From an uncultured Candidatus Saccharibacteria bacterium (GTDB lineage: Bacteria; Patescibacteriota; WWE3; 2-01-FULL-39-13), in assembly GCA_965230915.1 (NCBI GenBank), contig OZ246395.1, positions 472,935 through 536,934 on the forward strand: DNA of 64,000 bases, written 5' to 3'. Below are positions 19,746 through 64,000 of this stretch, one piece after another; position 1 is the stretch's first letter, and every line of letters begins with the position of its first letter. The position numbers and the translations under genes are program-made. The notes beneath the pieces were generated by a model that did not search any database, was not told where the DNA came from, and saw only the letters and a list, made by a program, of their open reading frames with translations.

Positions 19746-19887
19746 ATACGTGCCCTTTCTTCGAAATGGGTTATAAAAAGTAGGTCGGCAATATTATACG
19801 CTAATTTTTGCCGAAAAATATGGTGAAAAGCAGGACAAATCCTTAGTGGTTTGCTTAAATACTAAGCTTATTTGTTAACTGAAATGT

Positions 19888-19971
19888 GGTGCCGAGGAGA
19901 GGACTCGAACCTCCAAACCTTGCGGCACATGCTCCTAAGGCATGCGCGTCTACCAATTTCGCCACCTCGGC
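19888..19971 (-). tRNA. tRNA-Leu (anticodon TAG), class II with long variable arm, encoded CCA
   Basis: Reverse complement GCCGAGGTGGCGAAATTGGTAGACGCGCATGCCTTAGGAGCATG…GGTTCGAGTCCTCTCCTCGGCACCA. Confidence 0.8.
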
Positions 19972-20014
19972 ATGAGGAGACACAATTCACATATTATACA
20001 GAAATTTCTATTGA

Positions 20015-20752
20015 TTAATTAGTGGAAATATCAGTAGCAGCGATCTTATCCATAAAACCTTTTACGCAAGTGGTCCATGGTGCTTTTTCTGGATCTCCTC
20101 CACCTTTTGCAACTGAAGCTGGAGTATACCAAGTAACGATATCTTCAGGAGCTAAGGTTAAGCCTCTAGATTTTGTTTTAGATGCTATACCTCTAGTTAC
20201 TCTACCAATACAGTGTTCCCATGAATCGCAGTTGTAGCCCTGTTCGGCTAAAGTTGCTTCTTTACTATCGTACATAGCCCAACCCCATGCATTGTATGAT
20301 TCGCCCGAAATTTTTGGAGTAAATTTCCCGCCAGTACTTTCACACATTGCTATTGCTGCGACCAAATTTGGATTCACATCATTAACTTCCCCTTCTCTTA
20401 CAAAGTGGCAGCCCTGTCCGGATAACGGAGCTTTATGTCCTTCAAAAAAGGCATCGATTTTTTCGGCTCTTTCATCTCCAAAGGCACAATTTTCAGTAGA
20501 TGCGGCTAAAACGCTACCTTCAGGTTCACTAACTGCAATATCTACTTCGTCTTGTTGGAAATTCTCTGTTTGGGCATAAGTCTGACGGACCTTACCCGGA
20601 GTCATTACTAACCAATATGCTGAAACAAAAATCAGCATGAAGGAGAGCACATAAAAATATATGAATGGCAGTAAAACCAGTCTAACACTTGGTACGTTGT
20701 TCATTCTGAAAGTCAGTGTAGCAAACGGGTTTTTTAAAGGCAAATGTCGCAA
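20015..20752 (-). CDS. Membrane-anchored lysozyme-like protein (Rpf/SLT-like motif CESTGG…W)
   Basis: N-terminal TM. The motif AIAMCESTGGKF…YNAWGWAMY resembles the catalytic region of Rpf / lytic-transglycosylase (GH23-like) domains; the similarity is weak. Confidence 0.35.
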   Translation of the reverse strand: MRHLPLKNPFATLTFRMNNVPSVRLVLLPFIYFYVLSFMLIFVSAYWLVMTPGKVRQTYAQTENFQQDEVDIAVSEPEGSVLAASTENCAFGDERAEKIDAFFEGHKAPLSGQGCHFVREGEVNDVNPNLVAAIAMCESTGGKFTPKISGESYNAWGWAMYDSKEATLAEQGYNCDSWEHCIGRVTRGIASKTKSRGLTLAPEDIVTWYTPASVAKGGGDPEKAPWTTCVKGFMDKIAATDISTN

Positions 20753-20888
20753 TCTGACTTTTCGGGTGGTTACCGAAGATTTATTTTTCGTTTAAATTGC
20801 GCCAAATTTGGAACAGAAAGATGACGTAATGAAATATGACAAAAAACTACTTTGAGGAAATTTATCTAAAATGTGGAAAATTCTTAAA

Positions 20889-20967
20889 TGGCGCGTCTGA
20901 TAGGATTCGAACCTATGACCTACTGCTTAGAAGGCAATTGCTCTATCCAACTGAGCTACAGACGCAC
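20889..20967 (-). tRNA. tRNA-Arg (anticodon TCT), encoded CCA
   Basis: Reverse complement GTGCGTCTGTAGCTCAGTTGGATAGAGCAATTGCCTTCTAAGCAGT…GGTTCGAATCCTATCAGACGCGCCA. Confidence 0.8.
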
Positions 20968-21008
20968 GATTAGAAAGTACACGTTGATTATTTTACAATA
21001 AAAATCGC

Positions 21009-21094
21009 TTGGTGCCGAGGAGAGGACTTGAACCTCCATACCTTGCGGCACAGCCGTCTGAAGACTGCGTGTCTGCCAGTTTCACCACCTCGGC
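21009..21094 (-). tRNA. tRNA-Leu (anticodon CAG), long variable arm, encoded CCA
   Basis: Reverse complement GCCGAGGTGGTGAAACTGGCAGACACGCAGTCTTCAGACGGCTG…TTCAAGTCCTCTCCTCGGCACCA. Confidence 0.8.
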
Positions 21095-21102
21095 AAATTA
21101 AA

Positions 21103-21186
21103 TGGTGCGGACGAGAGGACTCGAACCTCCAAGCCAAAGGCACTACCACCTCAAGATAGCGCGTATACCAATTCCGCCACGTCCGC
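21103..21186 (-). tRNA. tRNA-Leu (anticodon GAG), long variable arm, encoded CCA
   Basis: Reverse complement GCGGACGTGGCGGAATTGGTATACGCGCTATCTTGAGGTGGTAG…TTCGAGTCCTCTCGTCCGCACCA. Confidence 0.8.
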
Positions 21187-21279: not shown

Positions 21280-21753
21280 TTAATCTAGTAAAGAATATAG
21301 GACCTGGATATGTGAGCTATTATGAAAAGTTTCAATTAATTGATCTTTTGGGATTATTAATCGGTTCTTAACATCTCCATCAGGGTCATTTAGATCACCT
21401 TCCAATAAAGATACTTTAGATTTATATATAAGCATGCAATCTATTCGGCCAGTAATCAAGAAATGATATCTGATCACCGCCAGTGGCGTAGAATGAATGA
21501 CGTTTGCATTAATTTCTTCTTTTACTTCCCTATTTAAAGCTTGTTCAGGTGTTTCCTTTTGCTCTAGCTTTCCTCCCGGTAAAGATGGGTGGTCATTGTT
21601 ATCTATAAAGATGCAAATATTATCTTCATCGACAAAAGCAATGGTTTTTGCACTTTTATATGCCATTGTGATTTTAGGGTCGTATTTGAAAATCTCAATT
21701 TTAGTTTCCTTACCCTCTATTTGGATATTTTCATTGTATATAGGTTTTGCCAT
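21280..21753 (-). CDS. NUDIX hydrolase
   Basis: Nudix box SLPGGKLEQKETPEQALNREVKEEIN. There is a 3-nt spacer to the upstream CYTH gene. Confidence 0.75.
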   Translation of the reverse strand: MAKPIYNENIQIEGKETKIEIFKYDPKITMAYKSAKTIAFVDEDNICIFIDNNDHPSLPGGKLEQKETPEQALNREVKEEINANVIHSTPLAVIRYHFLITGRIDCMLIYKSKVSLLEGDLNDPDGDVKNRLIIPKDQLIETFHNSSHIQVLYSLLD

Positions 21754-21756
21754 GAC

Positions 21757-22344
21757 TTAAAACGGAGGACATTCGAAAGTTGAATACCTTATCTTTTCCT
21801 GCACTTCATCACGAGATAGACCATATTTAGTTGAATAGATTTCCATAACAGATGTAATAATCCTGTCTTCCCAAGAAAGCCCTAGTTTTTCAGCTACCAC
21901 TCTAACTTTCTCTTCTGATGGTGCTTCAACTTCAACATAGGGCTCTAAGCTGGGCCATGTATCTATAACGATTTCCGCATCATCAAGAGTCCAGGTTTCT
22001 CTTAGCTTTTCTTGATAGTCTCCCTTTACTAAACCGGCTTTTTCTAATAGTGCGACAGCGGTTTCAAAATCTGAAACAATAATATTTATTTCTTTTTGAT
22101 CAGCTAAATTGCCCTCAGCTTTTGCATGAGTTTTTGCGCTCATTGTGACTTTATCTCCCTCATCCCTAACGCGAATATAATCACAATCGATATTTGGATT
22201 TAGGTGTTTATTAAAAACTTGCATTCGCATTAGACGTTCTGGCTGCTCTAATGTAGCCCCGATCTCTTGGAGTTTTGTACGAATGACGTTAGGTTCTACG
22301 GGATAAAATTTTGCTTCAAATTCTGTATCAGTATTTGTTTGCAT
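21757..22344 (-). CDS. CYTH-domain protein (CyaB/thiamine-triphosphatase-like triphosphate tunnel metalloenzyme)
   Basis: N-terminal EFEAKF (the ExExK signature of CYTH), plus later acidic/basic tunnel residues (YIRVRDEGDK…, EIVIDTWP). Confidence 0.65.
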   Translation of the reverse strand: MQTNTDTEFEAKFYPVEPNVIRTKLQEIGATLEQPERLMRMQVFNKHLNPNIDCDYIRVRDEGDKVTMSAKTHAKAEGNLADQKEINIIVSDFETAVALLEKAGLVKGDYQEKLRETWTLDDAEIVIDTWPSLEPYVEVEAPSEEKVRVVAEKLGLSWEDRIITSVMEIYSTKYGLSRDEVQEKIRYSTFECPPF

Positions 22345-22348
22345 AAAA

Positions 22349-22425
22349 TGGTGGGCGATGAAGGATTCGAACCTCCGACCCTCTCGATGTAAGCGAGATG
22401 CTCTAGCCAGCTGAGCTAATCGCCC
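22349..22425 (-). tRNA. tRNA-Val (anticodon TAC), encoded CCA
   Basis: Reverse complement GGGCGATTAGCTCAGCTGGCTAGAGCATCTCGCTTACATCGAGAGGGTCGGAGGTTCGAATCCTTCATCGCCCACCA. Confidence 0.8.
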
Positions 22426-59830: not shown

Positions 59831-59904
59831 TGCCAGATCGTCTAATGGTAGGACAGCGGCCTTTGAAGCCGTCAATCATGGTTCGAGTCCATGTCTGGCA
59901 GCCA
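59831..59904 (+). tRNA. tRNA-Gln (anticodon TTG), U1-A72, encoded CCA
   Basis: TGCCAGATCGTCTAATGGTAGGACAGCGGCCTTTGAAGCCGTCAATCATGGTTCGAGTCCATGTCTGGCAGCCA; U1:A72 and discriminator G are typical of bacterial tRNA-Gln. Confidence 0.75.
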
Positions 59905-59913
59905 GATTAAATC

Positions 59914-61224
59914 ATGAGCGACGGATTAACTATTAACCCAGACATATCTATCTTTCAAGCCGAAAGATCTTCTAAACATATTACTGTACTAAGTGGTGTT
60001 AATAATTCAGGTAAATCTGCAGTTCTAAAAAGGATCAAAGCACAATTGGGAGTATCAGCCTACTTAATTGGACCTGTACGTTTTTATCATGTACATCAAC
60101 TTGCCTCGCAAGAAAAAGATCCTAACGAGCTACATAACCTCGAATCTCAATTTCAGCAACAATTTACACAAACCAATACAAATCACGAACAAAATTTCCT
60201 TAACTTAACAAATATCCTTATAAATCTTTCTGATACAGATAGAAATAAATTATTTGAAATATGTGGCGAACTCATCGGATCAAAATTTACATTAAAACAA
60301 ACTGACCCTAATAACATAATGAGTATGAGGTATATAGATATGGATGGACAAAATTTGGGGTTGGGAAGTACTGGAACTCGTCTATTAATGACTATGCTCG
60401 GAATATGTATGGATAAAAGGTTTACTACAATTTTAATTGATGAACCTGAACTGGGATTAAGTCCTAAGATCCAGGAAGCTTTTTCTGATTTCTTATTTAA
60501 TGAGAGTCGTAGATCTCAAATATTTCCACATCTAGAAAATATTTATATTGCTACTCACTCTCACCTTTTCTTAGATAGAAAGGATCCAGAAAATAACTTT
60601 ATAATTTCTAAGAACGGGAATACAGTTTCAATCACAAAAATTAAAACAATTAGCGAGCTGCATAGGCTTCAATTTAATCTATTAGGAAACTCACTAGAAA
60701 GAATTTTTCTACCATCAGCCTTCGTTATAGTTGAAGGTCCAAGTGATTTTAAATATTTAAAAAGACTCATCGAGTTGAAATTTCCTGACAAAAGAATAAC
60801 AATTGCAGATGGTCAAGGTGATGTAAAAAGGGTCGTAAATTCGACTATCGAGACTTTAGGTGGAGATCTCAATAAAAGCCCTTATAAAGATAGATTATTT
60901 GTTGTAAACGACTCAGTTACTTCCCCTGGATTAAAAGCTATTCTTGCACAAAAAGGTATTATTGGAGATAAATTCATATCTTGGGATAAAAATGGCATTG
61001 AATATTTATATCCTCCGAACATCCTAGGAGAAATATTTGGAATATCACCTGAAAAAATTTTAAATGAATTACAAATAAATAATGATGATATCGAAGTTAG
61101 GAGTATTAGTCGAAAGAAAAATTCATTGTCAGATGAAATTGTATCAAAGCTTACACCAGATACAGAATTACCAAAAGAACTCATAGATAAATTATTAGAA
61201 CCAATCCTCAGAGCTATTAGCTAA
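59914..61224 (+). CDS. OLD-family ATP-dependent nuclease-like protein (N-terminal ABC-type ATPase + C-terminal TOPRIM/DUF4435-like domain)
   Basis: Walker A LSGVNNSGKSAVL; Q/signature-like GLGSTGTRLLM; Walker B TILIDEPELGLSP; H-loop IATHSH; C-terminal FVIVEGPSD…IADGQGD…FVVNDS (TOPRIM-like E and DxD). It starts 10 nt after tRNA-Gln. Confidence 0.6.
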   Translation: MSDGLTINPDISIFQAERSSKHITVLSGVNNSGKSAVLKRIKAQLGVSAYLIGPVRFYHVHQLASQEKDPNELHNLESQFQQQFTQTNTNHEQNFLNLTNILINLSDTDRNKLFEICGELIGSKFTLKQTDPNNIMSMRYIDMDGQNLGLGSTGTRLLMTMLGICMDKRFTTILIDEPELGLSPKIQEAFSDFLFNESRRSQIFPHLENIYIATHSHLFLDRKDPENNFIISKNGNTVSITKIKTISELHRLQFNLLGNSLERIFLPSAFVIVEGPSDFKYLKRLIELKFPDKRITIADGQGDVKRVVNSTIETLGGDLNKSPYKDRLFVVNDSVTSPGLKAILAQKGIIGDKFISWDKNGIEYLYPPNILGEIFGISPEKILNELQINNDDIEVRSISRKKNSLSDEIVSKLTPDTELPKELIDKLLEPILRAIS

Positions 61225-61262: not shown

Positions 61263-61463
61263 TTATTTCTTATACTCCAAAATATCAGCGGGCTGACAAT
61301 CTAAAGCTTTGCAAATCGCTTCTAGAGTCGACAAACGAATAGCTTTGGCCTTGCCGTTTTTTAATATAGAAATATTTGCCATTGTAATGCCAACCTTCTC
61401 AGCTAATTCTGTAACACTCATCTTTCGTTTTGCCAACATAACATCAATATTTATTATTATCAT
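61263..61463 (-). CDS. XRE-family (Cro/C1-type) helix-turn-helix transcriptional regulator
   Basis: LAKRKMSVTELAEKVGITMANISILKNGKAKAIRLSTLEAICKALDCQPADILEY is the classic HTH_3 domain. Confidence 0.85.
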   Translation of the reverse strand: MIIINIDVMLAKRKMSVTELAEKVGITMANISILKNGKAKAIRLSTLEAICKALDCQPADILEYKK

Positions 61464-61473
61464 TTTGATCCTC

Positions 61474-61956
61474 TTAAACTGTTAAATCGTTTTCTGATTT
61501 TAAATCTATTCCGTTTTGTAAAATTCTTTGAACGACAGTTGCAAACGTAGCGATTACTACAAATATAAAAGTAGTATATATGCCTAAAGCAGCAACACCT
61601 GCTGCATCTTCACCATTAGCTTTAGCGTTCAGAATAATATAACCTTCACCAAAGAAAATGAATACAGGCAATGCAATTGCACAATATTTTATTTTTTTAA
61701 CCGCTTTTATAGCTGCCTCAGAAAAGACATTATTATCGTCTACATATTCCAAAAGTTTAAATGATTGGTAAAGTCCAATAAAAAATGGGATCGAAGCGAT
61801 GTATCCATAAATTATAAATGGATCAGTATAAATGTTAATTAAATCTAAATTTTGGGCCCTTCCTTCATTTAGCGGGAACATAATCAAGCCAGCAATTGCT
61901 GCAAGAGTAATAAGTATAATAACAACCTTTAAAAAAAATGTGGAAATAGGTTTCAT
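61474..61956 (-). CDS. DUF2975-like 4-TM membrane protein (partner of a small XRE regulator)
   Basis: Four TM helices, about 160 aa, immediately upstream of a 66-aa XRE protein. This is the arrangement typical of DUF2975/HTH pairs. Confidence 0.5.
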   Translation of the reverse strand: MKPISTFFLKVVIILITLAAIAGLIMFPLNEGRAQNLDLINIYTDPFIIYGYIASIPFFIGLYQSFKLLEYVDDNNVFSEAAIKAVKKIKYCAIALPVFIFFGEGYIILNAKANGEDAAGVAALGIYTTFIFVVIATFATVVQRILQNGIDLKSENDLTV

Positions 61957-62027: not shown

Positions 62028-62573
62028 CTATTGCCCGCTGAAACTTTCTTTTAAATCTGCTGAGTACTTTTCCATAAGCTTATGGATTTTGGGGCTAATC
62101 ACAATATCACAGTAAGCGGCATCTTTATGATTATCATAATAATTCTTATGGTAATCTTCTGCCACAAAAAAGTTAGTATACGGAACAATTTCAGTAACTA
62201 TTTGATCTCTATAAATTTTTTGAATTTCTAGTTTTGCTTTTTCTGCTAAATCTTTTTGTTTTTCATCGTGATAAAAAATTACCGAACGATACTGTGGACC
62301 GACATCGTTTCCCTGGCGGTTTAATGTTGTCGGATTATGTGTATTAAAATGAACATCTAATAATTTTTCATATGAAATTACAGACGGATCAAATTCAATC
62401 TGAATTGCTTCAGCATGGCCCGTTCTACCCATAGAAACCTGATCGTAACTTGGGTTATCAACATGACCGCCGGCATACCCAGGTAAAACTGAGTTAACCC
62501 CTTTTAATCTTTTAAAAACCGCTTCTGTGCACCAAAAGCATCCGCCTGCAAATGTTGCTATTTCAGTCTTCAT
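62028..62573 (-). CDS. msrA: Peptide-methionine (S)-S-oxide reductase
   Basis: ATFAGGCFWCTEAVF catalytic motif. Confidence 0.9.
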   Translation of the reverse strand: MKTEIATFAGGCFWCTEAVFKRLKGVNSVLPGYAGGHVDNPSYDQVSMGRTGHAEAIQIEFDPSVISYEKLLDVHFNTHNPTTLNRQGNDVGPQYRSVIFYHDEKQKDLAEKAKLEIQKIYRDQIVTEIVPYTNFFVAEDYHKNYYDNHKDAAYCDIVISPKIHKLMEKYSADLKESFSGQ

Positions 62574-62955
62574 ATAAAACCTCCGGTAATGGTTGCCCTT
62601 CTTGAATAAATTTAATAGATGGAGAATTTACACAATGACGAGTGTCTTTATCAGTAATGTGTTCCCCTCGAAAGACATGGCCTAAATGTGCTCCACAGTT
62701 TGCGCATAAAATTTCTGTGCGGTATCCATCTGCATCAGTTTCTTCAAGTACTGCCTCTGGAAAAGTGTCATCAAAGGCTGGCCAACCGCAGTGAGCATCG
62801 AACTTTGCCTTCGAAGAAAAAAGTGGGTTATTACAACGTCTGCAAATAAAGGTTCCCTTTTCATAAAAATTATCATATTCGCCGGAGAATGGAGCTTCGG
62901 TCCCTTTTTGTTCAATTATGTATTTTTGATCATCGGTAAGTTTGTTATATGCCAT
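62563..62955 (-). CDS. msrB: Peptide-methionine (R)-S-oxide reductase
   Basis: SelR domain with zinc CxxC pairs (CRRCNNPLF, CANCGAHLGHVF) and the catalytic region RHCVNS. There is an 11-nt overlap with msrA. Confidence 0.9.
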   Translation of the reverse strand: MAYNKLTDDQKYIIEQKGTEAPFSGEYDNFYEKGTFICRRCNNPLFSSKAKFDAHCGWPAFDDTFPEAVLEETDADGYRTEILCANCGAHLGHVFRGEHITDKDTRHCVNSPSIKFIQEGQPLPEVLYED

Positions 62956-63026
62956 AAAGTGAGTATACCCTATTGATCCAGAAGATAATACTAATATAAT
63001 ATAATTATTATTTATTTATTTTTATA

Positions 63027-63788
63027 ATGAGTGATAAAATCTTAAATATAAAAGAAGCTAGCCAACTTCTAAACATACACTGGCAAACCGTTCGAAATTA
63101 TATAAATAGCGGAAAGCTTCCTGCTTCCAAGATTGGAAAAAATATAAGGATTAGGGAGTCAGATGTAATAAGACTATTAAATGGTACTTCTTCTGAATCC
63201 GAGAATGTTGAAATAGAGTTGAGATTTCTAACAGAAAAAAGAACTCAAATAGAGGAAAAATTGTTAAAGATGGGAGCAAAAGTAAGCTACCATGCACTTG
63301 TTATTGACCACTGGTATATCCCGAACGAAATAAAAAATCTAGAAGAGAAGAATGAATATTTTGATACAGGAAAAGGGTTCGGACTAAGGATACGCGAGCA
63401 AGACAATGACTATGTTGGAAAAATGAACACAAGCCTTGAGGTTAAAAGACTAGTAACACCCTTTCAGCATGATACATGCATAGAACAGGAAATCCCAGTT
63501 ACTTCATATGATGAAACAGATAGATTATTAAGACTTATGAATTTTAAAGAGTTTATAACTATAGAAAAAGATAGACTAATTTATAAACTTAAAGATATAA
63601 AAGTTGTAATTGATGATATCAAAAATTTTGCGACGGGAGTTGAAATAGAAATAATGACAAATAAAGGTAGAGACTTCGCAATACCAATTATCAAAAATTT
63701 GGCTGAAGAACTTGGCTTAGATCTAGCTAACGAACTAACTGAGAAAAGCGTCACATATGAAGCAATGGTAAAACTTGCAATATTTTAA
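63027..63788 (+). CDS. Fusion protein: N-terminal excisionase/MerR-like HTH (HTH_17) + C-terminal CYTH-like domain
   Basis: LNIKEASQLLNIHWQTVRNYINSGKLPASKIGKNIRIRESDV is an Xis/MerR-type HTH. It is followed by VEIELRFL (ExExK-like CYTH signature) and downstream E/K/R tunnel-like residues (FGLRIREQD, VEIEIMT). Confidence 0.5.
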   Translation: MSDKILNIKEASQLLNIHWQTVRNYINSGKLPASKIGKNIRIRESDVIRLLNGTSSESENVEIELRFLTEKRTQIEEKLLKMGAKVSYHALVIDHWYIPNEIKNLEEKNEYFDTGKGFGLRIREQDNDYVGKMNTSLEVKRLVTPFQHDTCIEQEIPVTSYDETDRLLRLMNFKEFITIEKDRLIYKLKDIKVVIDDIKNFATGVEIEIMTNKGRDFAIPIIKNLAEELGLDLANELTEKSVTYEAMVKLAIF

Positions 63789-63865
63789 ACAAAAAGCCCA
63801 GACCTATTTCGTTACCAAAAGTTCGGTAATAAAATAGATCTGGGTACAACCATAGATAGGCACAA

Positions 63866-64000
63866 ACCTTAGGCATCCGTAGGCATCAACCCTGCAATTA
63901 TTCCCTCAAGCCTAGGATCAATCTCCAGGAACCTACGCAGATACTCTAAACGTGGAGACCCAGCTATAGCAAACCAGACTGGGATATGCCATGACTGTCC
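63866..64000 (-). CDS. Probable 3' end of a GC-rich gene continuing beyond the window
   Basis: Open frame on the minus strand from the window edge to TAA at 63867-63869; GC content is higher than the flanks. The gene is partial. Confidence 0.25.

Follow-up and report, generated by a model that had tools for sequence, protein, structure and literature searches.

Enzymes of the CYTH, or triphosphate tunnel metalloenzyme (TTM), superfamily are ancient and widespread, and their physiological roles in prokaryotes are poorly understood. The fusion partners described for CYTH domains are HD, exopolyphosphatase, nucleotide kinase and CHAD domains, and no DNA-binding domain is among the fusions described in that literature (PMC8233210). 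True class IV adenylate cyclases carry the motif HFxxxxExExK, a small residue in place of the first Arg of xRxR, and ExA instead of ExE; thiamine triphosphatases carry W/YxRxR, and all others are phosphohydrolases of the TTM type (Vogt et al. 2021, PMC8233210). In SaTTM a C-terminal plug helix shuts one tunnel entrance and is a reported determinant of substrate preference; open/closed transitions of its tunnel are documented, and dimerisation is typical of CYTH proteins (PMC8233210). On the DNA-binding side, BldC, a MerR-like helix-turn-helix (HTH) protein without an effector domain, binds direct repeats as cooperative multimers (PMC5859096). Here we describe a gene that joins these two kinds of module, an excisionase/MerR-like HTH and a CYTH domain, in one polypeptide. 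It lies near the end of a stretch of 64,000 nt (the window; contig OZ246395.1 of assembly GCA_965230915.1, positions 472,935 to 536,934, forward strand) from an uncultured Candidatus Saccharibacteria bacterium, placed by GTDB in the WWE3 lineage of Patescibacteriota. The contig measures 945 kb and has a GC content of about 36%. No paper linking a CYTH domain with Patescibacteria was found in the literature searched. We tentatively read the product as a one-component regulator in which putative DNA binding would be linked to the binding or hydrolysis of a triphosphate.

The open reading frame (ORF) of this HTH-CYTH gene (Table 1) is a genuine gene and not a chance one, as clusters of homologs have a like length and the same two-domain architecture. 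An earlier note on this DNA, made from its letters without database searches, had proposed that an excisionase/MerR-type HTH is fused directly to a CYTH-like domain, and the proposal is borne out by Pfam, NCBIfam, the predicted structure and the homologs. Pfam places HTH_17 at residues 6-53 (52 bits, cut-off 27) and CYTH at residues 101-230 (36.4 bits, cut-off 23.2). The NCBIfam model 'excise' (TIGR01764) scores 37.9 bits at the N-terminus (cut-off 28.8), and 'cyaB' (TIGR00318) aligns with residues 62-240 below its cut-off (37.7 versus 57.95). An AlphaFold2 (AF2) model of the 253-aa protein, built on a 27-sequence family alignment, has a mean predicted local distance difference test (pLDDT) of 90.6 and a predicted template modelling score of 0.74, and shows a winged HTH, a linker and an alpha/beta barrel. 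The HTH is predicted to consist of helices 8-15 and 19-28, strands 34-36 and 39-43 and helix 44-52, that is, helix-helix-wing-helix. The linker is the least conserved stretch, its length varies among the members of our alignment A1, and the block of residues 51-60 has the lowest pLDDT (66). In the C-terminal domain the predicted strands and helices follow the TTM order. The top Foldseek matches in the PDB were only CYTH/TTM structures, namely YpAC-IV, Pyrococcus PH1819 and PH1012, P. furiosus 1yem and SaTTM (E about 1e-11, TM score normalised to the target 0.79-0.88, identity 18-24%), and capping enzymes were present among the fold matches. A search of the PDB with the family profile gave 1yem as the best match (E 5e-10), then YpAC-IV (5e-7) and SaTTM (1e-5); the solved chains matched include 1yem, 2fjt, 7ns8 and 2dc4. 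The C-terminal domain therefore models as a CYTH fold, and the non-CYTH fold that the earlier note had named as a ground for giving up the fusion was not seen.

Among solved sequences, 4j2n_A (deposited as Gp37) comes closest to the HTH, with an E of 2.8e-4, and the BldC chains 6ama and 6amk show a weak, full-length similarity to it. Models of viral excisionases superpose on the domain with a root-mean-square deviation of 0.8-3.5 A over about 50 residues. The Pfam models MerR (21.5 bits, cut-off 28.2) and MerR_1 (13.7 bits, cut-off 21.6) both remain below threshold. Across the family, H18-W19-Q20-T21-x-R23, with which the recognition helix starts, varies little or not at all, and H18, Q20 and R23 are invariant.

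Alignment A1 was examined for the determinants of Vogt et al. (2021). No HF motif was found before the hallmark motif, where the window protein has S56 and E57, at six and five residues ahead of E62, and all members have a variable linker. The xRxR stretch reads G119-L-R121-I-R123 with both Arg conserved, and thus lacks the small residue of the cyclases. E206-x-E208 is invariant, an ExE and not the ExA expected of a cyclase. The aromatic residue that W/YxRxR demands of a thiamine triphosphatase was not found; its position is held by G119, which is Gly in 96% of the fused members and Ser in standalone ones. Because the marks of cyclases and of thiamine triphosphatases are missing, and those of the TTM type are present save for a Lys-to-Arg change, the CYTH half aligns, by these sequence determinants, with TTM-type phosphohydrolases and not with class IV adenylate cyclases or thiamine triphosphatases. 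An identity as class IV adenylate cyclase (CyaB) was rejected on all three cyclase determinants and on a cyaB score below the NCBIfam equivalog cut-off, and one as thiamine triphosphatase on the lack of the aromatic residue. The source labels on the fused homologs are 'excisionase family DNA-binding protein' or 'predicted adenylyl cyclase CyaB'. Both kinds of database name, 'class IV adenylate cyclase/CyaB' and 'excisionase', are misleading for the HTH-CYTH family.

The Lys-to-Arg change lies in the hallmark motif. R66 aligns to the Lys of E-V-E-L-K in YpAC-IV and to that of E-F-E-A-K in a canonical CYTH protein encoded elsewhere in the window, so the Lys of ExExK is not present. Conservation was computed per column over 27 fused and 22 standalone members of the same clade. 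R66 is 100% conserved (27/27 fused, 22/22 standalone), and the motif is ExExR throughout; the metal-binding Glu pair E62 and E64 is invariant in the same sequences. The basic tunnel wall and the C-terminal ExE (R121, R123, K140, K181, R183, E206 and E208) are invariant or nearly so. The earlier note had looked to the ExExK motif and to the Arg and acidic residues of the tunnel. Its expectation holds for the Glu pair, RxR, K, ExE, KxR and C-terminal ExE, which are kept in all homologs, and fails for the motif itself, which is ExExR. Metal and phosphate ligands are invariant at an overall identity of ~50%, so that, on sequence grounds, the CYTH domain is most likely a working hydrolase that binds triphosphate, rather than a sensor that has degenerated. 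Catalytic residues are usually lost from relics that only sense, and their retention here argues that both binding and catalysis are under selection.

The CYTH half apparently belongs to an undescribed clade with ExExR and a plug-helix signature of its own. About 75 of the best 150 profile hits are standalone proteins of ~195 aa that cover only profile positions ~58-253 (E 1e-48 to 1e-13), and these match the fused profile far better than do characterised CYTH enzymes, of which the best in the PDB has an E of 5e-10. Fused and standalone members have in common E62, E64, R66, D94, R121, R123, K140, H148, E153, E155, K174, K181, R183, E206 and E208, together with the C-terminal K240-S241-x-T243...M247...F253. 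Conserved in the fused branch only are Y88, H89, H91, H95, W96 and the hairpin R-E-Q-D-N-G-Y-T-G-K at 123-132, which are candidates for an inter-domain or nucleic-acid interface. The standalone members that carry a source name come from Patescibacteria or candidate division WS2. The CYTH classifications now in use, among them the ten clusters that Vogt et al. (2021) drew by sequence similarity, give no description of this ExExR clade.

No shared neighbour was found in seven genomic contexts of standalone ExExR genes. An adjacent NUDIX gene, a pyrophosphatase, a thymidylate kinase and a dnaG-rpoD pair were each seen once among the seven. The NUDIX gene follows the standalone CYTH gene in L043 (5001-5588), and the six other contexts have none. 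In L045 (1103-4696) the standalone gene is directly upstream of dnaG (primase) and rpoD (sigma-70), classic partners in the macromolecular-synthesis operon; this is a single occurrence. One metagenomic protein of 405 aa (P0129) combines a CYTH domain of the clade with an N-terminal P-loop kinase-like domain (AAA_18). Its architecture is like that of the plant kinase-CYTH proteins TTM1/2, and P0129 belongs to the prokaryotic clade.

The fused family is small and conserved. A search of 5.8 billion proteins gave at least 56 homologous clusters at 90% identity (E 1e-57 to 1e-90, 46-58% identity), nearly all of 251-257 aa and with both precomputed Pfam domains present. An exhaustive profile search of 1.84 billion representatives gave about ten full-length fusion clusters at 50% identity, plus fragments. 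All members named by their source are of Patescibacteria type ('Patescibacteria group bacterium', 'Candidatus Dojkabacteria' and 'candidate division WWE3'), and the gene appears to be restricted to Patescibacteria, the bacteria of the candidate phyla radiation (CPR). The fusion was called unusual in the earlier note, and it does lie outside the CYTH fusions described in the literature; it is not a one-off, being a conserved family in Patescibacteria. The HTH-CYTH gene is conserved and unstudied in CPR bacteria.

Several members deserve mention on their own account. One metagenome-assembled genome (CAZILK01) has two diverged HTH-CYTH paralogs (L003, 8001-8765, and L011, 367-1122), with 57% and 43% identity to the window protein. 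In both, no more than about 5-6 nt separate the end of a -10-like box TGATATAATCGT from the ATG, a spacing that suggests transcripts with little or no leader. The member in L015 (4001-4858; P0025, 285 aa) has an insertion of ~30 residues (ELHRGRAAKYLTDSSTYARLSPLQSRRGILEHN) within the barrel, between the K181-x-R183 strand and the next, which could be genuine or an artefact of assembly or frameshift. Some assemblies that carry family members (L002, CAZNUP010000001.1, and L001, L003, L008, L009 and L011) are labelled 'uncultured Gammaproteobacteria' or 'Candidatus Saccharibacteria', and the family members in them are typical Dojkabacteria/WWE3-type proteins; the taxonomy assigned to these binned assemblies is perhaps not reliable. 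Three further proteins (P0108, P0151 and P0168) score high against the HTH half of the profile and consist of tandem HTH_17 arrays, P0108 having 8 repeats in 479 aa (321 bits). Such arraying of many excisionase-type HTH domains in one polypeptide is unusual.

With so nearly invariant a recognition helix, a conserved DNA site is to be expected. Expectation-maximisation, run without a positional prior on 27 non-redundant upstream regions, put the best site 37 or 36 nt before the start codon (-37 or -36) in 19 of them. In the relatives a -10-like hexamer stands at this distance, and in several loci the site reads TATCATTCATTATCAT. When whole loci were scanned on both strands with leave-one-out position weight matrices, the cognate site came first in 7 of 20 loci and within the top 3 in 14. 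In an unbiased screen of pentamers, TATCA/TGATA showed the strongest enrichment against other upstream regions of these loci (67% versus 21% of regions, p = 1.7e-6 over 70 tests). Its copies are phased at -37, -27 and -4, and an inverted copy occurs at +5 within the conserved M-S-D codons. The repeats overlap -35/-10 pairs, such as TTGACT-17-TATCAT in L015 and TTGACA-17-TATCAA in L021, so a DNA operator is more plausible than an RNA hairpin. A hairpin formed by the upstream element with the start codon was considered and rejected as a general explanation: of 27 loci only 7 have a strong inverted repeat, the window has none, and the upstream arm overlaps the -35/-10 region and is therefore probably not transcribed. 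For the family, these patterns suggest autoregulation at the relatives' own promoters; for the window's own copy the case is weak.

As to function, the earlier note had suggested a transcription factor that responds to nucleotides or polyphosphate, or else a DNA-targeted effector, and this is plausible. Established here are the architecture, the intact active-site residues, the TTM-type determinants and the single-gene organisation. The stable fusion, the near-invariant recognition helix and the fusion-specific surface suggest that HTH and CYTH are functionally coupled. In the regulator that we tentatively favour, the CYTH domain would dimerise and present two flexibly tethered HTH domains to DNA. 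A ligand bearing a triphosphate (inorganic triphosphate, short polyphosphate or an NTP-like compound) would close the tunnel, and its hydrolysis would reopen it, acting as a reset. The open/closed cycle may alter the engagement of HTH with DNA, and transcription would in this way be tied to the level of the ligand. In many relatives the likely target would be the gene's own promoter, with TATCA words 10 bp apart over the region of the -10 box and transcription start. Several points weigh against a regulator of this kind. The upstream TATCA is absent from the window's own promoter, which has only TATAAT-like repeats, and with a leave-one-out matrix the window's cognate site ranks 20th in 64 kb. 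Matches to TATCA-N5-TATCA and TATCAYTCAT in the window are at or below chance, with no regulon signal. The motif overlaps generic -10-like hexamers in AT-rich genomes, the start sites of the controls are imprecise (zero information content in controls), and the loci in which the repeats are clearest perhaps belong to a single subclade and so would not be phylogenetically independent. The change of Lys to Arg at residue 66 may bear on the putative catalysis, conservative as it is, with the positive charge kept. Most members of the ExExR clade operate without any HTH, so enzyme activity may itself be the primary function.

The surroundings of the gene are summarised in Table 1. The stem-loop behind it is very stable (-25.6 kcal/mol, z = -6.2, none of 200 shuffles as stable). 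Its U-tract is on the minus strand, which makes it an intrinsic terminator of the downstream gene, and it probably ends the HTH-CYTH transcript too. The GC-rich partial gene that had been noticed next to the fusion is indeed there, as a convergent ORF with 45% GC against about 35%. This ORF has no Pfam match, and with a terminator hairpin in between it is not part of the HTH-CYTH unit. Rfam searches at the gathering or E-value threshold gave nothing in or after the HTH-CYTH gene. No conserved neighbours of the fused gene were found across 40 related loci (11 from species-representative genomes and 29 from metagenomes). From the promoter-like site, the terminator hairpin and this lack of conserved neighbours it follows that the gene is monocistronic, and it stands among housekeeping genes.

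Table 1. Coordinates of the HTH-CYTH gene, its parts and other features of the window
Feature	Position	Strand	Basis or remark
HTH_17-CYTH fusion gene	63027-63788	+	ATG to TAA, 253 aa plus stop codon
Excisionase/MerR-like winged HTH, residues 6-53	63042-63185	+	Pfam HTH_17, TIGR01764, AF2 secondary structure
Inter-domain linker, variable and flexible, residues 54-60 (about 8 residues)	63186-63206	+	Alignment A1, pLDDT
CYTH/TTM domain, apparent ExExR clade, residues 61-253	63207-63785	+	Pfam CYTH, PDB profile search, Foldseek
Hallmark motif E62-I-E64-L-R66 (ExExR replacing ExExK)	63210-63224	+	Alignment with YpAC-IV and the window's canonical CYTH
C-terminal plug-helix region, signature K240-S241-x-T243...M247...F253	63744-63785	+	Conservation in fused and standalone clade members
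Predicted sigma-70-like promoter, TTGATC - 16 nt - TATAAT	62973-63000	+	26 nt before ATG; consensus match 10/12 only
Stable stem-loop between convergent genes	63796-63845	.	RNA fold, U-tract on minus strand
3' end of convergent gene, exits window	63869-64000	-	43 codons plus stop; frame translation ends ...GLMPTDA*
msrB	62563-62955		Upstream, divergent
msrA	62028-62573		Upstream, divergent
DUF2975 membrane protein (160 aa) and Cro/C1-type (XRE-type) HTH_26 gene (66 aa)	61263-61956	-	10 nt apart, DUF2975 upstream; between ATPase gene and msrA
OLD/AriA/PtuA-like ABC-type ATPase, 436 aa	59914-61224	+	1.8 kb upstream of HTH-CYTH gene
tRNA-Gln and ATPase gene	59831-61224		ATPase gene starts 10 nt after tRNA-Gln
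Canonical CYTH gene, standalone, 194 aa	21757-22344	-	Pfam CYTH 39.7 bits
NUDIX hydrolase gene	21280-21753	-	3 nt after the canonical CYTH gene (pair 21280-22344)
tRNA genes Leu, Arg, Leu, Leu	19887-21186		Cluster around the CYTH-NUDIX pair
tRNA-Val	22349-22425		Same cluster

The ATPase upstream matches OLD, AriA/AriAB, PtuA, GajA and ATPase-Toprim defence models (AAA_21/AAA_15). It lies in the window's stretch of lowest GC (31.6%), and could be a defence gene, small and solitary, that was inserted at tRNA-Gln. Beyond it a class A penicillin-binding protein (PBP1) is encoded, and further out a sortase and PolX. At the other end of the window, the second CYTH protein that had been reported within 42 kb is present. 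It has the canonical ExExK and only marginal similarity (13.9 bits) to a profile of the fused family's CYTH part. Its NUDIX partner has weak Nudt16-like similarity, and the two enzymes could work in turn, first on triphosphate ends and next on diphosphate ends.

The island that had been suggested as continuing past the window edge was not supported. The neighbours are housekeeping genes (PBP1, MsrA/MsrB, sortase and PolX), synteny is not conserved, neither an integrase nor att-like repeats of tRNA-Gln were found in the window, and full-length phage or plasmid relatives are missing: searches of phage, plasmid, viral-structure (BFVD), PADLOC and PHROGs collections gave no match across both domains, only domain-level HTH and generic CYTH-fold ones. 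A functional excisionase or recombination directionality factor was rejected because the window has no integrase or att repeats, the gene has no conserved neighbours in the 40 loci, and the whole protein is matched by no phage or plasmid homolog. That the gene is cargo of a mobile element or defence system, as the directionality factor of an island or as an NTP-depleting anti-phage effector, we hold to be very improbable. Its HTH is of the excisionase family and matches the mad1 HTH model of MADS at the domain level, the defence-like ATPase is not far upstream beside tRNA-Gln, and phages do carry CYTH triphosphatases. Yet the intervening and flanking genes are housekeeping ones, none of the 40 loci shows a conserved neighbour, the CYTH half has no PADLOC match, and behind the ORF come a terminator and then a convergent gene. 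Hardly credible, too, is a class IV adenylate cyclase joined to a DNA-binding domain, with cAMP or another cyclic nucleotide as product. The source names ('predicted adenylyl cyclase CyaB', 'class IV adenylate cyclase'), the place of YpAC-IV among the top fold matches and the cyaB alignment to residues 62-240 would fit it; HFxxxxExExK is missing, R121, E206 and E208 are kept, the cyaB score is too low, and SaTTM and Pyrococcus CYTH proteins match equally well or better.

Two other explanations take the CYTH domain as a triphosphatase and differ in the part given to the HTH. The HTH may only localise the enzyme to DNA or promoters. There it would act on a triphosphate linked to a polymer, such as the 5' end of a nascent RNA or a primer, or on NTP or polyphosphate in the vicinity, and its output would be chemical and not a control of transcription. 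The invariant catalytic residues agree with this, as do the RNA 5'-triphosphatases included in the CYTH superfamily, the capping enzymes among the fold matches and a fusion-specific surface (Y88, H89, H91, H95, W96 and the hairpin) that could bind a nucleic-acid moiety. The canonical CYTH-NUDIX pair in the window's genome also fits CYTH action on nucleotide or RNA ends in CPR bacteria, but a NUDIX gene accompanies one of seven ExExR contexts and never the fused form in 40 loci. The closest structures are small-molecule TTMs (SaTTM, Pyrococcus CYTH) and not Cet1-like RNA triphosphatases, and the plug helix, which shuts one tunnel side in this subgroup, disfavours the threading of a polymer end. 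Such a tethered enzyme is rather unlikely. We also consider it rather improbable that the protein is a housekeeping triphosphatase, removing inorganic triphosphate or aberrant nucleotides, with an HTH that is only autoregulatory or a module for interaction or oligomerisation and without coupling of ligand and DNA. About half of the best 150 profile hits are standalone proteins of the same clade and signature, and the promoter motifs, where present, are found only at the gene's own promoter, with no regulon signal in the window. However, the genome already carries a canonical CYTH, the fusion is stable at full length across lineages ~50% identical, and both the recognition-helix residues and a fusion-specific barrel surface are conserved. 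Less probable again, and something of a long shot, is that the ExExR CYTH is a CPR-specific enzyme class with a new CYTH substrate, whose HTH branch would be a hydrolysis-timed switch or a promoter-tethered enzyme processing 5'-triphosphates. If true, the initiation of transcription would be under the direct control of an active triphosphatase, or be its site of action, in bacteria that have very few conventional regulators.

The one-component regulator, with DNA binding coupled to triphosphate binding or hydrolysis, remains the explanation that we tentatively prefer. A CYTH domain hard-wired to a DNA-binding domain is an experimental handle, as its DNA targets would show which processes are controlled by the ligand, and the ligand, once identified, would tell what the ExExR clade senses or degrades. 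Patescibacteria have small genomes and few recognisable regulators, and a new one-component system in them would be useful for understanding their physiology.

Compared with known TTMs (SaTTM Saci_0718, PDB 7ns8-7nsf; Pyrococcus 1yem, 2dc4 and 2een), the predicted model has the same eight-stranded tunnel fold (TM 0.79-0.88), and the protein has the acidic pair of strand 1, RxR, K, ExE, KxR, the C-terminal ExE, the plug helix and the TTM determinants of Vogt et al. It differs, as far as sequence and model tell, in the invariant Arg for the hallmark Lys, in the N-terminal HTH_17 and in an identity of only 18-24%, and the clade adds its own D94, H148 and K-S-x-T...M...F plug signature. With CyaB (YpAC-IV, PDB 2fjt/3n0y; TIGR00318) it shares the fold, a comparable structural similarity and the database name, whereas the HF motif is missing, the gate-keeper Arg and the second Glu of ExE are kept and the score is below cut-off. 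Like excisionase/BldC-type HTH proteins (PF12728, TIGR01764; 4j2n_A; 6ama/6amk), it scores above the thresholds of both family models, and the 10-bp-phased repeats at the promoters of relatives may resemble the direct-repeat, multimeric DNA binding of BldC (PMC5859096). Those proteins have about 60-70 aa, with an HTH only and no effector domain, and the HTH-CYTH gene is not beside an integrase or att site. Classical MerR one-component regulators also combine an N-terminal MerR-like HTH and a C-terminal ligand-binding module in one polypeptide. Here, however, there is no coiled-coil dimerisation helix, the flexible linker leads straight into a beta strand and the effector module is apparently an active enzyme. 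Membership in the classical MerR family was therefore rejected on the Pfam MerR score below cut-off, the short disordered linker of the model and the lack of a coiled coil. CYTH-CHAD proteins such as E. coli YgiF and the plant kinase-CYTH proteins TTM1/2 likewise use CYTH as one module of two (PMC8233210), and in the HTH-CYTH family the partner is a DNA-binding domain.

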